DNA from: Actinobacteria bacterium UBA7524 | Lineage (GTDB): Bacteria > Actinomycetota > Coriobacteriia > Anaerosomatales > UBA912 | Length of the DNA: 32,251 nucleotides | Assembly: GCA_002478275.1 (NCBI GenBank) | Contig: DLMY01000017.1 | Coordinates: 1 to 32,251, forward strand | Direction of reading: 5' to 3' | In this document: one piece after another, positions 18,001-24,000 of the stretch | Position numbering within the stretch: position 1 is the first letter of the stretch | Layout of the letters: every line of letters begins with the position of its first letter | Position numbers: made by a program

Positions 18001-21000
18001 GGTACGGCGCGTCGATCGCGAACTACATCAACCCGTCAGCGACCTATGACAGCGCACTCCAAAGCCAGTGCATCGCCCAGGCGAAGCGCATGGCGCTCGC
18101 CTCGGCGCTATCGCACTCGAGCTACGCCCCGGAGAGCTGCGCCAAGTTCGGCGACGGCATGACAGCGCTCGGCGGGGGTGGGGGAGGCGTGGCCGGCGCA
18201 CTCTACGGTCACTGTCCGCAACTCGGCTCGTGCTCACGCCTCGGCGTGGGGCTCGTGCTCTACAACGGTACGCTCTGGGCTGTTGCGCAAGGCGGCGAGT
18301 AGCCCATGCACACACGGACACTCACCACGCGCGTGCTCCTCATCCTCGCGCTGCTCTGTGGGTCGGCGGTCGCTTTGCCCGGTACGGCTTCGGCGGCCAC
18401 CGTCTCGACGGGCGGCGCGGGGACGTCGTACTACGACGCCTACTACTCGGGCTCATGGCACGATCTCCAGACGCCGCCGCACACGGTTGACGGGCAGGTC
18501 GCATACTGTCTCGAGCAGGCGAAGGACTTCCCCCTCAACAACTCGACGTACGGCCTGTTCGACCCGGCCGCGCTCTACAACTTCAATACCTACGTTGGTT
18601 TGCAGTCCATTCTTCACCGGGGGTATCCGTACGTGACCCCGGCCGGCCTGACCGAGACCCAGGCGCGCTACGCTACCGCGAACGCCATCCGTGCGTGGAT
18701 GCGCGAGGCGGCCGGCGTCGGCTACACGTTCATGGACATGAGCACCTACACGCAGGACGCTGCGACATGGTCGCGGTTGCGGCCGGCTCCGGGGCTCGGT
18801 GGATCCGAGCAGATGTTTCGCTGGACGATTGACCTCGTGACTGGCGCGCGCAACCGCGTACTCCCGGCCCGGAGCGTGAGCGCCGCGGCCGTCACGCTCC
18901 GACCGAACGCGGACTACACGCGGCTTGTCGGCCAGACGACGGTGTCGTTCAACGACCTCAACGGCTATTACACCGTCGCTGTGCCCGCCGGGGTCACCGT
19001 CACGGGCTACTCGAGCCATGCCGGAGACGTGCTCACCGTCTCCGTGCCTTGCAGCGCAGCCTGGATTGGCCGCTCGGTCTCGCTCACTCTCTACGGGTAC
19101 GACAGTCGTGTTCCAGCGAACATCTTCTACTACGCCCCTGGTGACACGTCGTACCAGCGGGTCGTATCTGCCCAGGCTTCGAGCTTCCAGGTCTCTGCTT
19201 CGGCCGCAGTTCCCGTTGGCTCCGGCTCGGGTGCTTTACGAATCACCAAGACCGATGTGGTCGACGGCGCACCACTGGGCGGCGCTGTCTTCGAGATCCT
19301 CTGGAACAGCACCGTCGTCGCTTCGGGCACGACGGACGCTGCGGGGGATCTCACGTTCACCGGGCTTGCTCCTGGCACCTGGACGGTCAGGGAACAGACC
19401 GCTCCGCAGGGCTACCTGCTCGACGTGACGCCGCATTCAGTCACGGTGCCCGATGGCGGCACCGCCACGCTCGAGCTCACCAACGAACGCGCCTTGCGGC
19501 CTGTGCGCGTCACCAAGACCGACTCGCTCACGGGCGCGGCCCTCGGGGGGGCCGCCTTCGAGATCCGCCAGGGCGTCACCGTCGTGGAGACGCTTACCAC
19601 GGGCGCTGACGGCACGGTGACGTCGGCACCCCTTCCCTTTGGTGACTACACGCTTGTTGAGACCGTGGCGCCGGCGAACCACATGCTCGACGCCACACCG
19701 TATCCGTTCACGATCAACGCAATCTCACCCGTCGTGATACAGATAGCGCGGACCGACCAGCCCTATCGCCCGATCACGCTCACTAAGACCGACGAGCTCA
19801 CAGGGGCGGTCCTTGAAAGGGCCGTCTTCGAGATCCGCCAGGGCGTCAGCGTCACGGAGACGCTCACCACCGGTGCTGACGGCACGGCGACGTCGGCACC
19901 CCTTCCCTTCGGCGACTACGAGCTCGTGGAAGTGACAGCGCCGACAGGCTATGTTCTCGATACCGTCGTGACCACATTCACCGTCGATGCGGCTTCATCT
20001 GCGGCCTTCGAGTTCACACGCACCGATTCGCGCGTGCGCGGCACTGTGCGGCTGGAGAAGCGCTCGGACGGGCAAGACGCACGGCTTCTCCCGGGTGCGG
20101 TCTACGAGATCTGGCGCGTGCGCGATACATCGCCGCTTGCAGCACCGTTCGATCCGGCCGAGGACCCGACGGATCCGGTCGCCACTCTCACGACCGACGC
20201 TCAGGGCGTTGCGCGATCCGAACCGCTCGAGTACGGCTGCTATTACGCGATAGAGACGACCGCGCCCGTGGGTCACGCACTCAATCCCACGCGGCACTAC
20301 TTCGAGATCCGCGAGGACGAGGCCCTCATCTCCCTTGATCTCACCGACGAGGTTCTGCCGGTGAACCACGGCGGGGTGATGCTGCGCTACCGGAACATCT
20401 GGGATGGCACGGAGATCGCCAAAGCGTGGGGCTACAACGCTGAGATTGGCACCGAGTACATGCCGCGTGTCCGGGCCGAAGGTCTCGACAAGATGCCTAT
20501 CGAGGGCTTCTCGTACGTGACAGCCGACTACGCACCCTATGCCGAGCTCGTCGACGGCAAGCTGCTGGTCACGTACTGGTACCGGCAGACCGTCTCCGGC
20601 GACTGGCTCAAGGTCCGCACCGGCGACGACGGCCGAGCACGGCTCACGGCGCAAGACCGCGAGACCTACGGACTGCTCTCGAATGCCGAGCTCTACTCGC
20701 GACTCCTTGAGGCGAAGGTCGCGAACCCGGATGTGATCGGCTACCTCTCGATACCTGGCACCGACCTCCATGAGCCGGTGGTGCAGACGACGGACAACGT
20801 CACCTACCTCACACACGAAGCAGACGGCGATGCCGACGCGCGAGGAGCGATCTTCGCCGACTACCGCTCGCCGCGCTATGCTGGCGACAGCTCGCACGCG
20901 ACGCTGCTCCACGGCCACAACATGCGGGACGGCTCGATGTTCGGCGTTCTCGCCTCCTATGGGGACGCGGACTTCTGGGCGGCGCACCCCTTCATCCAGT

Positions 21001-24000
21001 ACGTGGATGCCGCCGGCAACGGCGGGACGTGGCTCGTCTACTCGGCGCGTGTGGCCGATGGCTCCGACGATGCGTTTGCGTTCCCGGTCACGCGGCCGTA
21101 TGCGGATCGCATTGCGCGATGGGCGGATCGCTCGTTCCTGGATCCCGGCTTCCGGCCGGATCCCGCCGGACGTACGCTCACGCTTTCCACGTGCGCGTAT
21201 CACGTTGAGGACGGGAAGTTGCTGGTGCATGCGGCGCTGATCGACTAGACGCCGACGACCGCCGGTCGGGGGAACACCTCGGCCGGCGCTCTTGCGAGGT
21301 GCGTGTCATGAGCGAAGCGTGTAGTTTCAACTGCTAACCGAACATCTGACCGTGCTCAAGCGAAATCCGCTCACCTGTCCTACTCCCATCGCTTCAGAGC
21401 TCTCAGGGCCTCGGTCAAGTCCTCTGCCACGACGAGCCGATCGGTCTCAAGCCACTCGTCTAGCCCTAGAAGGTCGTGATTCCATGGTTGGCTGACGAGG
21501 ATTGCGCGACCGTCTCCTTTCGCCAAGAAGTCAGCGATATTCGACGGGTAGTCGTCGACCAGGTAGTCAAGCTCCGCGAGCGACTTCTTCCCAGGGAAGA
21601 CATGGAGAAGGCAGTCGTAGGAGTTCAGGCCGTGCCAAGTCAACCAGTGCTTCGTGAGCTCATTGGTTGACTCAGGTCGCGCCGTGACGATTAGAACGCG
21701 ATGCCGACCGGCTACACCGTTTATCAGCGAAGCAGCGCCAGGTCGTACCGGCATGCTGAGAATGTAGTCCTTGTGACCCAGCGCCTCTTCGATTTCCGTC
21801 TTGATGTCATGCTCGTCATCAAGCTTGCAGTCCCATGCCGTGATATCGCTCGCCCTCAGAACGAGTCCGTACTTCAGTCGAACGCGTTCCAGCACGCCGG
21901 CTATCTGATCTGCGAGGACGCCGTCAATGTCGATTCCGACGGTGCTTCGCCGCCGCCGCTGGTTCTTCTTCAGAGCCTTCTCGAGAGGGCGCACAAACAG
22001 CCGGTAGAGGACCATCAGTGCTAGCGCGGCGGACAGGAAGACACCATTCTTGCCCGGTGTGCTGGGCGCTGTGGCGCCGTACGCCGCGGCGAGCAGCGTG
22101 AAGCTGATGAAGCCGATGCCCAGTGAGATCAGGCCGCTCGCCCGAGGGCCAAACACCATCTTGCGCAGCACACCGGCCACCGTGTAAGCAACGAACACCA
22201 AGGCCAATGTCTCAAGATAGGGAAGGACTGTCGCTGACGGGTTCACAGCGATGCCTGGGACCAGTAGAGCGAGGCGGGCATAGAGCGCCACGATGCACAG
22301 GTCCACCACGATCCGCAGGTACTCACGGGCGACGGGCCACCAGGTGAGTGGACTGTTGTGCACAACATCGGAATCACGAGAGAGCAGGTAAGGGTTTGCG
22401 GAGGTGGTGCGATGCCAGTCGATCCAGCTCAGAACGGCTGTGATGAAGACCCCCAGCAGGGCCATGCTCGCAACCGGAGATTGGCTTGGCTGGAGGAATA
22501 CATCCTTGTTGGTCACCAATCCGTCCCCGAGAACCACAGCAAACAACACCTGCACCATGGTGACCATCTGCTGCGAGAGTGCTTCATCTCGGTTCATGTG
22601 ATTCCCCCGACTCCCGTCGCTGGTTCACTCCGAATGATGCCACTTGCTGACGCGCCGTGGCGCTTCGGGCTGTCCCGGTCGGATCCCCCGCCCGCAGACC
22701 AGACGATACGCGTGGAGGGCCCGACCGGAGCTTGAACTCGCACTCGTGAGAATCATCGGCTGGTACAACCCATCGCAAGCGCCGCTCGCGCATGGTGATC
22801 AGGCGGCCGGCGCCGTTCCAGGCACTCGAGCGATACAATCAAGAAGTCGCCACGCCATCTCCGGCATCCAAATGAACGAGCCGGCGTGAAGCCACGGGCG
22901 TTCCATGTCGCCGGGTTGGTCAGTCAACGCGGCATTTGAGCCGGTCGCGTTGTCAGACGCGACCTCTAGCATTGTTCTGACAGTGTCTGCTTTAGCGGTC
23001 GGTCGCAGATCGGTGAGGCCATCTCGGCCTCGTCGCGGTTGCCGCGACACTGGTACTGTCACAAGTGACCAATAGGCAGCAACCTAGACCACGGGGGATC
23101 AGGCCGTATGCTTGATGATCGCAAGATGCACGAGGAGACCGCGTCAATAGCCGAGACGGGTCATCTCGAAGACAACGTAGTTGCCGATGCCATCTCGCAC
23201 GAGTCTCTGGGAGAGGCAGAGGGCGACCCGCAACTGGCATTCCGCACCGCGCTCGGGCGTGCGTTCAAGGGCGATTCCGCAATCGCACTGCCGAGGCTCG
23301 TGGCCCCCGAATCCGTGGACTTGATCATGACGAGTCCGCCGTTTGGGCTGGTTCGCAAGAAGCAATACGGGAACGTCGATGCTGATGACTACACCGACTG
23401 GTTCAGGGACTTTGCGGAGGCATTTACCAAGGTTCTGAAGCCGACCGGCAGCTTGGTAATCGATCTCGGAGGAGCCTGGAATCGCGGTCAACCGACCCGA
23501 AGCCTGTATCACTTCGAAGTGATGATCATGTTGTGCCGTGAGTACGGGTTTCACCTGGCCCAGGAGTTCTACTGGTGGAATCCAGCCAAGCTGCCATCGC
23601 CCGCGCAGTGGGTCACGATTAAGCGGACGAGAGTCAAAGATGCGGTCAACTGCATTTGGTGGCTCTCGAAGTCTCCCAATCCGAAGGCATCGAACCTGCG
23701 GGTCTTGCAGCCCTATTCGTCAAGCATGCGCAGCCTGCTCAAGAACGGCTATCAATCGGGGACGCGACCCAGCGGACATGTGATTTCCGATAGGTTCGGG
23801 ACCGACCATGGCGGAGCGATTCCGCCCAACCTGCTCGCGCTCGCGAACACGGAGAGTAACGGCGCGTACCAGCGCTACTGTCGGCAGAACGGACTCATCG
23901 AGCACCCTGCGCGCTTTCCGGTGGGCATACCTGAGTTCTTCGTACGGATGCTGACCGACAAAGGTGACCTGGTGGTTGACCCGTTCGCTGGTAGCTGCGT

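Follow-up and report, generated by a model that had tools for sequence, protein, structure and literature searches.

The window, i.e. the whole 32,251-nt stretch of contig DLMY01000017.1 of Actinobacteria bacterium UBA7524 that was analysed, contained the following features of an integrative conjugative element of environmental Coriobacteriia (coordinates, strand, content):

1271..2614, minus strand: tyrosine integrase at the left end of the element, adjoining tRNA-Lys (1129-1204) and tRNA-Glu (1236-1311)
11803..13323, plus strand: MobP3 relaxase (NF041499, 173.7 bits; cut-off 150)
16673..17593, plus strand: conserved upstream gene, 306 aa, no known family; signal peptide, C-terminal membrane span, RRRRRR, and acidic tail
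17580..18302, plus strand: conserved upstream gene, ~240 aa from MRRHPVL, no known family; N-terminal membrane span, Pro-rich linker, and Cys-containing C-terminal domain
18306..21248, plus strand: adhesin-sortase gene, 980 aa plus stop
18306..18395, plus strand: signal peptide, ~residues 1-30 (...TASA/AT; Kyte-Doolittle scan, predicted cleavage site)
18396..19205, plus strand: class II thioester domain (TED), ~residues 31-300 (Pfam, profile against PDB, Foldseek, and motifs)
19233..20351, plus strand: four SpaA/CnaB isopeptide-type stalk domains, residues 310-394, 400-487, 491-575, and 579-682 (Pfam SpaA x4)
20361..20600, plus strand: MucBP-like beta-grasp domain, ~residues 686-765 (VIA-align and Atlas)
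20613..20633, plus strand: V-R-T-G-D-D-G, residues 770-776, candidate internal sorting/cleavage motif (conservation, spacing, and likeness to sorting motifs)
20649..21245, plus strand: class B sortase-like domain, residues 782-980 (Pfam, TIGR03064, solved SrtB chains, Foldseek, and VIA-align)
29555..32212, minus strand: NlpC/P60 wall hydrolase, 171-aa ORF, and VirB4-type conjugation ATPase, the last running past the contig end

The genome-wide survey's note had described this element by its integrase next to tRNA-Lys/tRNA-Glu, MobP3 relaxase, ParA, ParB, and NlpC/P60 protein, all of which were found again, while its "TraG-like" gene was the VirB4-type ATPase. The relaxase was the first gene of a conserved block relaxase–ParA–ParB–g404–g103–g306–g295–adhesin, as given by synteny across five to six loci. 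Relatives of the ~240-aa upstream gene had stops 5′ of the Met of MRRHPVL, taken here as its start, and the start codon of the adhesin-sortase gene lay 4 nt past the stop of the preceding gene.

The 980-aa ORF was a single uninterrupted frame, as had been reported. The same fusion occurred in ~26 protein clusters (23 related clusters plus the P0122 clade), with full-length relatives of 876–1011 aa; its C-terminal module was present in 16 of the 401 sampled genomes of the class, from six families of one order, and was 90–95% identical in five other families, which bore out the close likeness described earlier. The fusion is genuine and maintained by selection. That a frameshift or mis-assembly had fused two genes, one for an adhesin and one for a sortase, was refuted for practical purposes: the same continuous frame was found on many independent contigs and in 16 genomes, and the junction contained no membrane span and was itself conserved.

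The N-terminal 300 aa had been assigned to no known family, but Pfam, PDB profile, and Foldseek searches identified a class II TED like those of BaTIE and TIEpLS20. The head scored 22.4 bits against Pfam TED (cut-off 22; 30–39 bits for relatives) and matched 6fwv at E 1.2e-9 in the profile search against PDB, and 6fwv and 6fwy were the best Foldseek matches of its model, with only ~16% identity to 6fwv (BaTIE) over the model. By the motif definitions in the available parts of PMC4450167 and PMC8092201, the putative thioester residues Cys68 (in YCLE) and Gln284 (in YQRVV) were invariant (12 of 12), while the helical TQxxPhiW motif was degenerate (TANAIRAW, 124–131). BaTIE/EfmTIE86 (6fwv, 6fwy) were the closest in sequence and fold for the head, with aligned Cys and Gln motifs, and for the first stalk domains, which aligned with the BaTIE CnaB domains in 6fwv; according to the available part of PMC8092201, however, these wall-anchored class II TED adhesins have a terminal LPXTG with a membrane span, and it is a separate sortase that anchors them.

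The four SpaA domains reported in the stalk were recovered (Pfam SpaA x4, E 3.6e-71). From pattern-based Lys/Glu/Asn-or-Asp triads (K315/E330/N393, K404/E419/D484, K494/E509/D574, and K585/E601/D681), we infer that isopeptide bonds may form in all four. The following domain opened with an invariant HGGV; Pfam gave no match for it, while VIA-align matched 7lst (Z 7.3), 4m01 (Z 7.3), and 7yl4 (Z 7.1), as well as 2kt7 and 3q69, and Atlas assigned it to MucBP (0.90). This MucBP-like domain plus the linker behind it was accompanied by a sortase in all 23 matches. As a separate observation, P0275, an unrelated SpaA protein with two adjacent membrane spans, looked as if an adhesin tail had been read through into a sortase with its anchor.

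The C-terminal domain displayed N-terminal helices, NPDVIGY at 807, His871 (HGHNM), Cys963 (in TLSTC at 959–963, the cysteine noted earlier), and Lys971; NPDVIGY fitted NPD(V/I)xG(W/Y), which we take to be a class B sortase motif. The previously listed matches were reproduced for Pfam Sortase (814–978, 33.3 bits; cut-off 26.6) and for solved sortase B chains (5jcv, E 3.5e-21; 2oqw, E 5.7e-18), and also for class B sortase TIGR03064 (E 6.3e-29 at 804–974), but in the last case the 101 bits lay below the curated cut-off of 153.75. VIA-align gave Z 14–16 to class B sortases, with the pilus-building enzymes 4y4q (Z 15.8) and 3psq (Z 15.5) among the top matches, and Foldseek gave E ~1e-14. His871 and Cys963 were invariant in 23 of 23 fusion members, the sortase parts of which shared only 48–58% identity. 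The earlier claim of a complete catalytic domain was not confirmed: all 23 aligned family members had Lys971 in place of the conserved sortase Arg, while most printed stand-alone relatives, and also the P0122 clade, had Arg at this position. Marraffini reportedly found in 2004 that Arg replacement in SrtA strongly lowers activity. The catalytic Arg is described as conserved across all sortase classes in the available part of the review PMC11231552.

The sole hydrophobic segment of the 980-aa protein in a Kyte-Doolittle scan was the signal peptide (residues 5–31), in agreement with the reported lack of a membrane anchor; with no span past the signal peptide, the usual means of keeping substrate and sortase together is absent. 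The sortase likewise had no sorting signal C-terminal to it, as had been stated, but it was preceded by the sorting-type motif VRTGDDG, located in a flexible linker between the MucBP-like domain and the sortase and having a predicted scissile bond Thr772/Gly773. In the alignment, [VI][RKG]TGD was kept by 22 of 23 fusion members (the exception being the close relative P0002 with VRAGDDD), and all three members of the distant P0122 clade had APKTGD. T-G-D was retained while the surrounding linker diverged among fusion members, and the distance from the motif to the sortase NPD was 35 residues wherever measurable (taken from the alignment for P0016 and P0019); of 77 stand-alone SrtB relatives, just four had a TG[DE] anywhere in the corresponding N-terminal region.

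The motif was also compared with the tails of 97 listed sortase-less relatives: (i) 32 ended in xP[KQRS]TG[DE], (ii) 12 in other xPxTG, and (iii) nine in Pro-less xx[QY]TG[VD], e.g. IVYTGDRSN; five read PKTGDDSN. In the printed tails a hydrophobic span and then a basic stretch came after the motif, and the sortase domain of the fusion occupies the place of both. At the sequence level, VRTGDDG resembles the C-terminal xPKTGD(D) and IVYTGD sorting motifs of these relatives. Its Val position is Pro in tested class B motifs; the available part of PMC4155245 has C. difficile SrtB cleaving (S/P)PXTG between T and G and leaving NVQTG uncleaved in vitro. Pro in the motif went with Arg in the P0122 clade and Val with Lys in the main clade (P0021 combined VKTGD with GRK), a pattern drawn from two or three lineages only. 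The motif region was left unplaced by AlphaFold2 (pLDDT <50), and a structural turn or a lid-like pseudo-substrate would explain T-G-D-D-G and its fixed spacing just as well.

In a rather unlikely reading, the sortase domain, with Lys for Arg, would perform no peptide transfer and be a pseudo-enzyme or lid-blocked module that holds the adhesin non-covalently, e.g. by binding peptidoglycan stem peptides or T4SS surface proteins, with TGD lying in the groove as pseudo-substrate. The invariant Lys971, the TIGR03064 score below cut-off, and the N-terminal lids known to occupy the active site in class C sortases (available part of PMC11231552) are consistent with this; strict conservation of His871, Cys963, and TLSTC at such low identity would, however, be unusual for a dead enzyme, and the P0122 clade combines Arg with canonical APKTGD.

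The invariant His and Cys and the structural likeness to pilus-building 4y4q and 3psq, together with the conserved secreted/membrane proteins of unknown family encoded directly upstream, would also suit a sortase that stays tethered on its stalk and acts in trans, either polymerizing or anchoring another surface protein of the element or host or trapping a sorting-signal protein of the recipient covalently, as an acyl-enzyme, with TGD as merely a structural linker. This is unlikely: a pattern screen found no LPXTG-type ORF in the window or in 15 related loci and one clear case only (LPFTG) in the 83%-complete host assembly, the DDP[TA]SL segment of the upstream g306 varied at its would-be Thr, and the invariant TGD with its fixed spacing would be left unexplained. 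A further substrate may have escaped the screen, given its home-made pattern and the incomplete host assembly.

The fusion was further compared with known systems. Class B sortases (S. aureus SrtB with IsdC NPQTN, C. difficile SrtB, Spy0129, and the S. pneumoniae type II pilus sortase) shared the fold, N-terminal helices, HGHNM His, and TLSTC Cys, and x-[PV]-[KR]-T-G-D is of class B type, but (i) their substrates are separate, while the fusion had enzyme and putative substrate in a single chain, where the motif precedes the enzyme domain, and (ii) the fusion had no N-terminal membrane anchor, had Lys971 for Arg, and fell below the TIGR03064 cut-off. Hedgehog cleaves itself with transfer of its N-terminal part to cholesterol, and Hedgehog/intein autoprocessing is like the self-cleavage proposed below in passing an N-terminal part to an acceptor, but it uses another fold and another chemistry than sortase. 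Engineered self-cleaving sortase fusion tags (e.g. PMC4658790, available part) likewise join enzyme and cleavage motif in one chain, but are man-made. No description of a natural adhesin-sortase fusion of this type was found in the literature searched; new here is the near-invariant sorting-type motif between the MucBP-like domain and the sortase of one chain.

TIEpLS20 (gene 34 of Bacillus subtilis plasmid pLS20), in the available part of PMC8092201, is a class II TED adhesin required for conjugation in liquid, with wall attachment given as unexplained and pLS20 as having no sortase gene. From that source and with both proteins compared to 6fwv rather than directly to each other, TIEpLS20 and the fusion shared a conjugation-related locus, a signal peptide followed by an N-terminal class II TED, a CnaB-type stalk, Cys in [YFL]C-Phi-zeta (Cys68 here), Gln ~30 residues ahead of the first CnaB domain, and the absence of a classical C-terminal sorting signal; TIEpLS20 had no sortase domain, while the fusion ended with MucBP-like domain, sorting-type motif, and sortase B.

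The survey's idea that the element brings an adhesin with its own transpeptidase fitted everything found, although it had missed the thioester head, Lys971, and the motif; with a cleavage-type motif just upstream of the sortase, "adhesin plus enzyme" becomes substrate and enzyme in one chain. It is quite possible, if short of probable, that the protein is a self-cutting conjugation adhesin that cleaves at Thr772/Gly773 and joins itself to peptidoglycan independently of any host sortase. In favour are the conserved motif with its fixed spacing and likeness to sorting signals, the invariant His871 and Cys963, the lack of any membrane span past the signal peptide, the MucBP-like module's occurrence with the sortase only, and the failure of the screen to reveal another candidate substrate; Lys971, Val in the place of Pro, the unplaced motif region, and VRAGDDD in P0002 speak against it. 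The gene product would be a surface adhesin of TIE (thioester, isopeptide) type belonging to the element, probably serving donor–recipient contact by analogy with TIEpLS20. After Sec export and signal-peptide removal, it would consist of head (Cys68–Gln284), four stalk domains, MucBP-like domain, V-R-T-G-D linker, and sortase; the sortase would act on the chain it belongs to or on an adjacent copy: Cys963 would attack the Thr772–Gly773 bond, adhesin 31–772 would be kept as a thioacyl intermediate, a peptidoglycan amino group would receive it, and the 208-residue sortase fragment would be set free. S. aureus SrtB attaches IsdC to peptidoglycan that is already mature, with no lipid II involved (available part of PMC11231552).

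The same motif evidence, together with the lack of a membrane tether holding the enzyme near lipid II, would also fit water resolving the intermediate after the cut at Thr772, with shedding of a soluble thioester adhesin or a matrix/aggregation factor. Such self-release is quite improbable, given that a donor must retain its conjugation adhesin, that TIE relatives are wall-anchored in the available part of PMC4450167, and that with hydrolysis the sortase chemistry would be pointless compared with a plain protease. If the self-cutting, self-anchoring reading is true, the adhesin would be anchored without the host's own sortase, which would suit an element moving between families.

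The adhesin–sortase gene was a single unbroken ORF, and it was arranged with its neighbors in the window as follows.

6504-8684 (-): ATPase of 726 aa, weakly matching ABC, AAA_15, and AAA_21 (OLD/Abi-like), where the GC content of the element is lower (0.55)
16673-17593 (+): g306, with signal peptide, membrane span, RRRRRR, and acidic tail
17580-18302 (+): g295, with membrane span, Pro-rich linker, and Cys-containing C-terminal domain
18306-21248 (+): adhesin–sortase gene, 980 aa
21380-22597 (-): 405-aa ORF, convergent with the adhesin gene, with C-terminal 5'-nucleotidase (NT5C) domain and N-terminal half of no known family
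23108-28983 (+): variable cargo, with N6/N4 DNA methylase, MTaX1 protein, ResIII/SNF2-type helicase, and SMC/AAA_23-type ATPase in a row

The encoded protein was one secreted chain composed of thioester head, stalk, sorting-type motif, and sortase-like domain, with no membrane span. Pfam recognized four SpaA domains plus Sortase at 814-978 (33.3 bits; cut-off 26.6); together with the ORF check, NCBIfam, and matches to solved class B sortases, this bore out the coordinates, the SpaA content, and the sortase content given in the genome-wide survey's note. The sole hydrophobic segment in the hydropathy scan was the signal peptide (residues 5-31), and the last sortase strand directly preceded the C-terminus. 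Cys18 as the site of a lipoprotein anchor was rejected: under the lipobox rule 'ALLC' does not qualify, and the Cys was missing in the family cluster P0010. The promoter/terminator scan around the gene gave no signal exceeding shuffles.

The whole-protein search listed 23 clusters of the same architecture (P0002-P0024, of which P0013 was a partial record), and these spanned 763-1332 aa with two to seven SpaA domains; an artefact is an extremely improbable account of the fusion. Their database names were 'SrtB family sortase' or 'SpaA isopeptide-forming pilin-related protein'. The exhaustive search with residues 677-980 (E <= 1e-30) returned five representatives only (P0020, P0022, P0024, P0122, and one fragment), and the next matches were ordinary stand-alone SrtBs of ~250 aa and <=121 bits. 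The most distant fused form was the P0122 clade, with three clusters of 1323-1336 aa.

Two further kinds of sortase fusion were observed: (i) P0275 (1084 aa, unrelated, from a single metagenome contig), which had SpaA x5, adjacent membrane spans at 782-809 and 816-840, and a sortase with 'GKRLVLH', and which looks like a read-through of an adhesin gene into a membrane-anchored sortase gene; it may be either a genuine intermediate or the product of a frameshift, and it suggests how adhesin–sortase fusions could begin; and (ii) P0229, P0256, P0271, P0272, P0274, and P0276-P0280 (735-1210 aa), in which CinA/MoCF domains, sometimes with SpoIID, were joined to a class B sortase, one of them being named from Oscillospiraceae; these may be gene-call fusions of neighbors or real fusions.

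The adhesin gene belonged to the block that serves transfer and maintenance in a conjugative element. The window was one entire contig from an assembly of 1.81 Mb in 60 contigs (83% complete), and it displayed tRNA-Lys and tRNA-Glu followed by a tyrosine integrase and, further along, RadC, MobP3 relaxase (173.7 bits; cut-off 150), ParA, ParB, four conserved genes not assigned to a known family, and the adhesin gene; 3' of the latter lay a variable stretch and then, on the opposite strand, NlpC/P60 and a VirB4-type ATPase, within the gene of which the contig ended (32251). The element thus combined a tRNA-adjacent integrase with a relaxase and a type IV secretion system ATPase, and on these features it was taken to be an integrative conjugative element. 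The block ParA–ParB–g404–g103–g306–g295–adhesin was common to six related loci (L004, L007, L008, L009, L011, and L012), five of which also kept RadC and relaxase. The C-terminal module was found at E <= 1e-40 in 16 of 401 sampled genomes of the class (the host assembly included), and all 16 belonged to six families of the same order, most being 90-95% identical in protein, a pattern consistent with a recently spreading conjugative element.

The two genes immediately upstream of the adhesin gene (16673-18302, +) encoded conserved surface/membrane proteins of no known family. g295 ended 4 nt before the adhesin ATG, and this gap suggests translational coupling of the two genes. The Cys-containing C-terminal domain of g295 had no match in Pfam or NCBIfam, and we take it to be reminiscent of CAP/YkwD domains. 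Downstream, the 405-aa NT5C ORF was not conserved in related loci, and the 23108-28983 cargo, which looks like a restriction or defense island, was missing at the corresponding place in these loci.

Variation was also seen among other copies of the element. A second, partial MucBP-like plus sortase module (94% identical) was present in the host assembly itself (C29:3-617, -; locus L003), in an open frame of 208 aa where the contig ends, and it covered 41-245 of the 304-aa query (protein residues 717-921); it may reflect either another element or heterogeneity among the strains in the bin. At L013:9662-11311 and L017:6496-8098 (likewise in genomes G069 and G049), tRNA-Lys/tRNA-Glu and an ~85-aa integrase remnant were directly followed by a truncated adhesin gene (439-aa ORF from near residue 543, with no signal peptide), and these loci look like decayed elements with a deletion from integrase to mid-adhesin. 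Another deletion form was found at L009:3937-5893, where ParA came almost directly after the tRNAs and an incomplete integrase match (230 aa, 91% identity), with no RadC or relaxase match there.

The N-terminal head of the protein matched PF08341 (TED) marginally (22.4 bits vs cut-off 22), and the scores of relatives were 30.3 (P0021), 35.9 (P0022), 38.6 (P0024), and 21.5 bits (P0122). A profile built from 12 N-terminal parts matched the Bacillus anthracis TIE protein 6fwv (BaTIE; E 1.2e-9), with 'AYCL' placed on 'AYCL', and the AlphaFold2 model of the head (pLDDT 72.6) gave 6fwv/6fwy in all of its best four Foldseek rows (prob 1.00, TM only 0.31-0.36). According to Walden et al. (PMC4450167), two residues form the thioester bond, a Cys in [YFL]C-Phi-zeta and a Gln in a Phi-Q-zeta-Phi-Phi strand, and the helical TQxxPhiW motif is dispensable for it. 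Cys68 (YCLE) fitted the former and aligned with AYCL of 6fwv, Gln284 (YQRVV) fitted the latter near the domain end and aligned with VQnTTV of 6fwv, and each was kept in all 12 sequences; moreover, Gln284 preceded the first CnaB/stalk domain, in the same relative position as Gln256 of TIEpLS20, the conjugation adhesin of plasmid pLS20, as described in PMC8092201. The head is therefore probably thioester-competent, as judged from motif fit, invariance, and placement, and the bond itself is a predicted one. The helical motif was degenerate (TANAIRAW here and in most relatives), and the canonical TQV(S/A)LW was confined to P0022-P0024. A dead TED, with the Ala of 'ATANAIRAW' taken as a lost thioester Gln, was rejected, since the Gln of TQxxPhiW is not bond-forming in the same source and Cys68 and Gln284 were invariant.

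The stalk consisted of four PF17802 (SpaA/CnaB) stretches (E 3.6e-71), and the first ones aligned with the CnaB domains of BaTIE in 6fwv. A Lys/Glu/Asn-or-Asp triad was found by pattern in each (K315/E330/N393, K404/E419/D484, K494/E509/D574, and K585/E601/D681), and isopeptide bonds were predicted from them. Residues 686-765 had no match in Pfam, and their model resembled MucBP-type domains in VIA-align (7lst Z 7.3, 4m01 Z 7.3, and 7yl4 Z 7.1; also 2kt7 and 3q69); the Atlas assignment of this part to MucBP (0.90) was taken as a lead only. The MucBP-like plus linker part (684-806) was seen solely in fused proteins, in 23 of 23 matches among proteins of 539-1715 aa, and none of these was a split form carrying the MucBP-like domain and the motif with no sortase.

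The C-terminal domain was sortase-B-like, with one defining feature failing: the fold, His, and Cys were kept, but Lys971 replaced the shared Arg. NCBIfam TIGR03064 (class B sortase) matched 804-974 with E 6.3e-29 and 101 bits vs a curated cut-off of 153.75, and residues ~800-980 matched the solved class B sortases 5jcv (E 3.5e-21) and 2oqw (5.7e-18). The AlphaFold2 model of 677-980 (mean pLDDT 71.8) displayed a sortase beta-barrel with class B N-terminal helices, with VIA-align matches to 4y4q (Z 15.8, 170 aligned, rmsd 3.2), 3psq (Z 15.5), 5b23 (Z 15.4), and 2oqz (Z 14.2) and a Foldseek match to 1qx6 (E 1.2e-14). The window protein carried HGHNM at 869-873 and TLSTC at 959-963, and His871, Cys963, and Lys971 were each unchanged in 23 of 23 aligned family members. 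His-Cys-Arg is common to all sortase classes according to a review (PMC11231552); Lys971 lay opposite the Arg of 5jcv and of most listed stand-alone SrtBs (exceptions: P0126 and P0131), P0021 had 'GRKFIV', and the Arg was retained in the P0122 clade ('GTGRILV'). The literature search for R197K together with sortase found no paper. A non-catalytic or lid-blocked sortase domain, to which the Lys at the Arg position would be congenial and the unchanged His871 and Cys963 would not, is unlikely. The class B N-terminal membrane anchor was also absent from the fused sortase.

The stretch joining the MucBP-like domain to the sortase helices contained V-R-T-G-D-D-G (770-776), which the AlphaFold2 model left unplaced (pLDDT <50 at 765-774). 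[VI][RKG]TGD was present in 22 of 23 aligned members, and the motif of the P0122 clade was V-A-P-K-T-G-D. Its Thr and the Asn in the sortase's NPD motif were 35 residues apart in every member measurable by script, the P0122 clade included; in P0016 and P0019 the script picked an earlier TGD and the alignment gave the same register, and P0007 escaped the pattern. By comparison, TG[DE] occurred anywhere in the N-terminal region of 4 of 77 stand-alone SrtBs. The exception among the 23 was P0002 (989 aa, 95% identical), the sole family member with an altered motif (VRAGDDD for VRTGDDG), which may be either a copy in decay or the result of a sequencing error.

The comparison was also applied to the tails of the sortase-less relatives.

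Table. Endings of the 97 sortase-less relatives (P0025-P0121) listed in the whole-protein search, sorted by their last 60 residues
xP[KQRS]TG[DE]: 32/97
Another xPxTG: 12/97
Pro-less xx[QY]TG[VD], e.g., IVYTGDRSN: 9/97
V[KR]LG[LMI]D: 20/97
None of these: 24/97

Where a sorting signal was present in the listed tails, it was followed by a hydrophobic span and a basic tail, and PKTGDDSN itself occurred in five relatives. Compared to an LPXTG-like pentapeptide, KVRTG(D) had T-G-D as in the xPKTGD/IVYTGD signals of relatives, but with no Pro. The signal's span and positive tail were absent after the fused-family motif, and the sortase domain of 208 residues, free of any membrane span, stood there instead. 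Because the endings of sortase-less relatives carry a similar motif with span and basic tail, the fused-family motif resembles, at the level of sequence, the first half of such a signal, the enzyme standing in place of the second half. As a separate observation, the V[KR]LG[LMI]D(S/N/T)D... ending (P0036, P0041, P0042, P0045, P0048, P0052, P0056, and others), with membrane span and basic tail and no xPxTG, constituted an unusual sorting-like signal in 20 of the 97 TED/SpaA relatives.

These features point to a mechanism in which the sortase domain would cleave Thr772/Gly773 of its own chain or of a neighboring copy, residues 31-772 would be handed to a peptidoglycan amine, and the 208-residue enzyme fragment would be set free; we hold this tentatively, giving it nearly, and not quite, an even chance. 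His, Cys, Lys, and T-G-D were strongly kept, T-G-D at a fixed spacing; against self-cleavage stood the Lys at the Arg position, the Val at the Pro position, the unplaced motif in the model, and the P0002 variant. Complex prediction of the MucBP-like domain plus motif (688-776) with the sortase (777-980) gave a score of 0.21 and a mark of 0.32, informative in neither direction. In PMC4155245, the SrtB of Clostridioides difficile severs (S/P)PXTG between its T and its G, and NVQTG was uncut by it in vitro. That Pro goes with Arg and Val with Lys from clade to clade is a suggestive pattern, though one seen in two or three lineages only. Self-release through hydrolysis would draw on the same T-G-D motif and is very unlikely; on the side of transfer, S. 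aureus SrtB joins IsdC to the mature wall, with lipid II not needed (PMC11231552).

A tethered sortase acting in trans, which would keep the conserved catalytic residues in use, is distinctly unlikely. The pattern screen found no sorting-signal ORF in the window or in loci L004-L018; in the host assembly it flagged five ORFs, with one credible sorting-signal protein (LPFTG) on contig C10, which also encoded an ordinary membrane-anchored sortase with Arg. g306 as sortase substrate was rejected: its 'DDPTSL' before the membrane span varied (T to A in L008 and L011), and its tail continued with 20 acidic residues.

The closest described system is TIEpLS20, a class II TED adhesin on which pLS20 conjugation in liquid depends; it lacks a sorting signal, and its mode of attachment is left unexplained in PMC8092201. 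Like TIEpLS20, the fused protein had a thioester head and a stalk; unlike it, it had a MucBP-like domain, motif, and sortase added. In the searched portion of the Creative Commons PMC/bioRxiv literature, neither a natural adhesin–sortase fusion nor sortase autoprocessing was found, and the matches were engineered self-cleaving sortase tags and reviews only.

Transfer to peptidoglycan after cleavage at Thr772 would make the protein a natural 'self-sorting' surface protein, whose sortase cuts itself off and moves the adhesin onto peptidoglycan with no membrane-bound sortase, in a Hedgehog-like single-turnover autoprocessing; we offer this as a possibility that we would sooner doubt than assume. 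If it holds, the replacement of Pro by Val in the motif and of Arg by Lys in the enzyme would represent enzyme–substrate co-evolution, and a compact self-anchoring or self-ligating module with an active-site Lys would be of interest to sortase-using protein engineers; if the domain is inactive, it would still clearly exemplify how a sortase fold can be recruited as a module without catalysis. In the usual view, sortase anchoring requires a membrane-held enzyme and a substrate held at the membrane by its sorting signal, and a single chain that unites enzyme and substrate and lacks any membrane span would amount to a new way of displaying proteins on the surface. It would give one possible answer to the question raised for TIEpLS20, namely how conjugation adhesins lacking a sorting signal attach, and it would explain a working adhesin in hosts with different sortases, across the six families that share this element at 90-95% identity. 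A mobile element could then display its mating adhesin in any host, and thioester head and wall transfer together could covalently tie donor and recipient walls at both ends.
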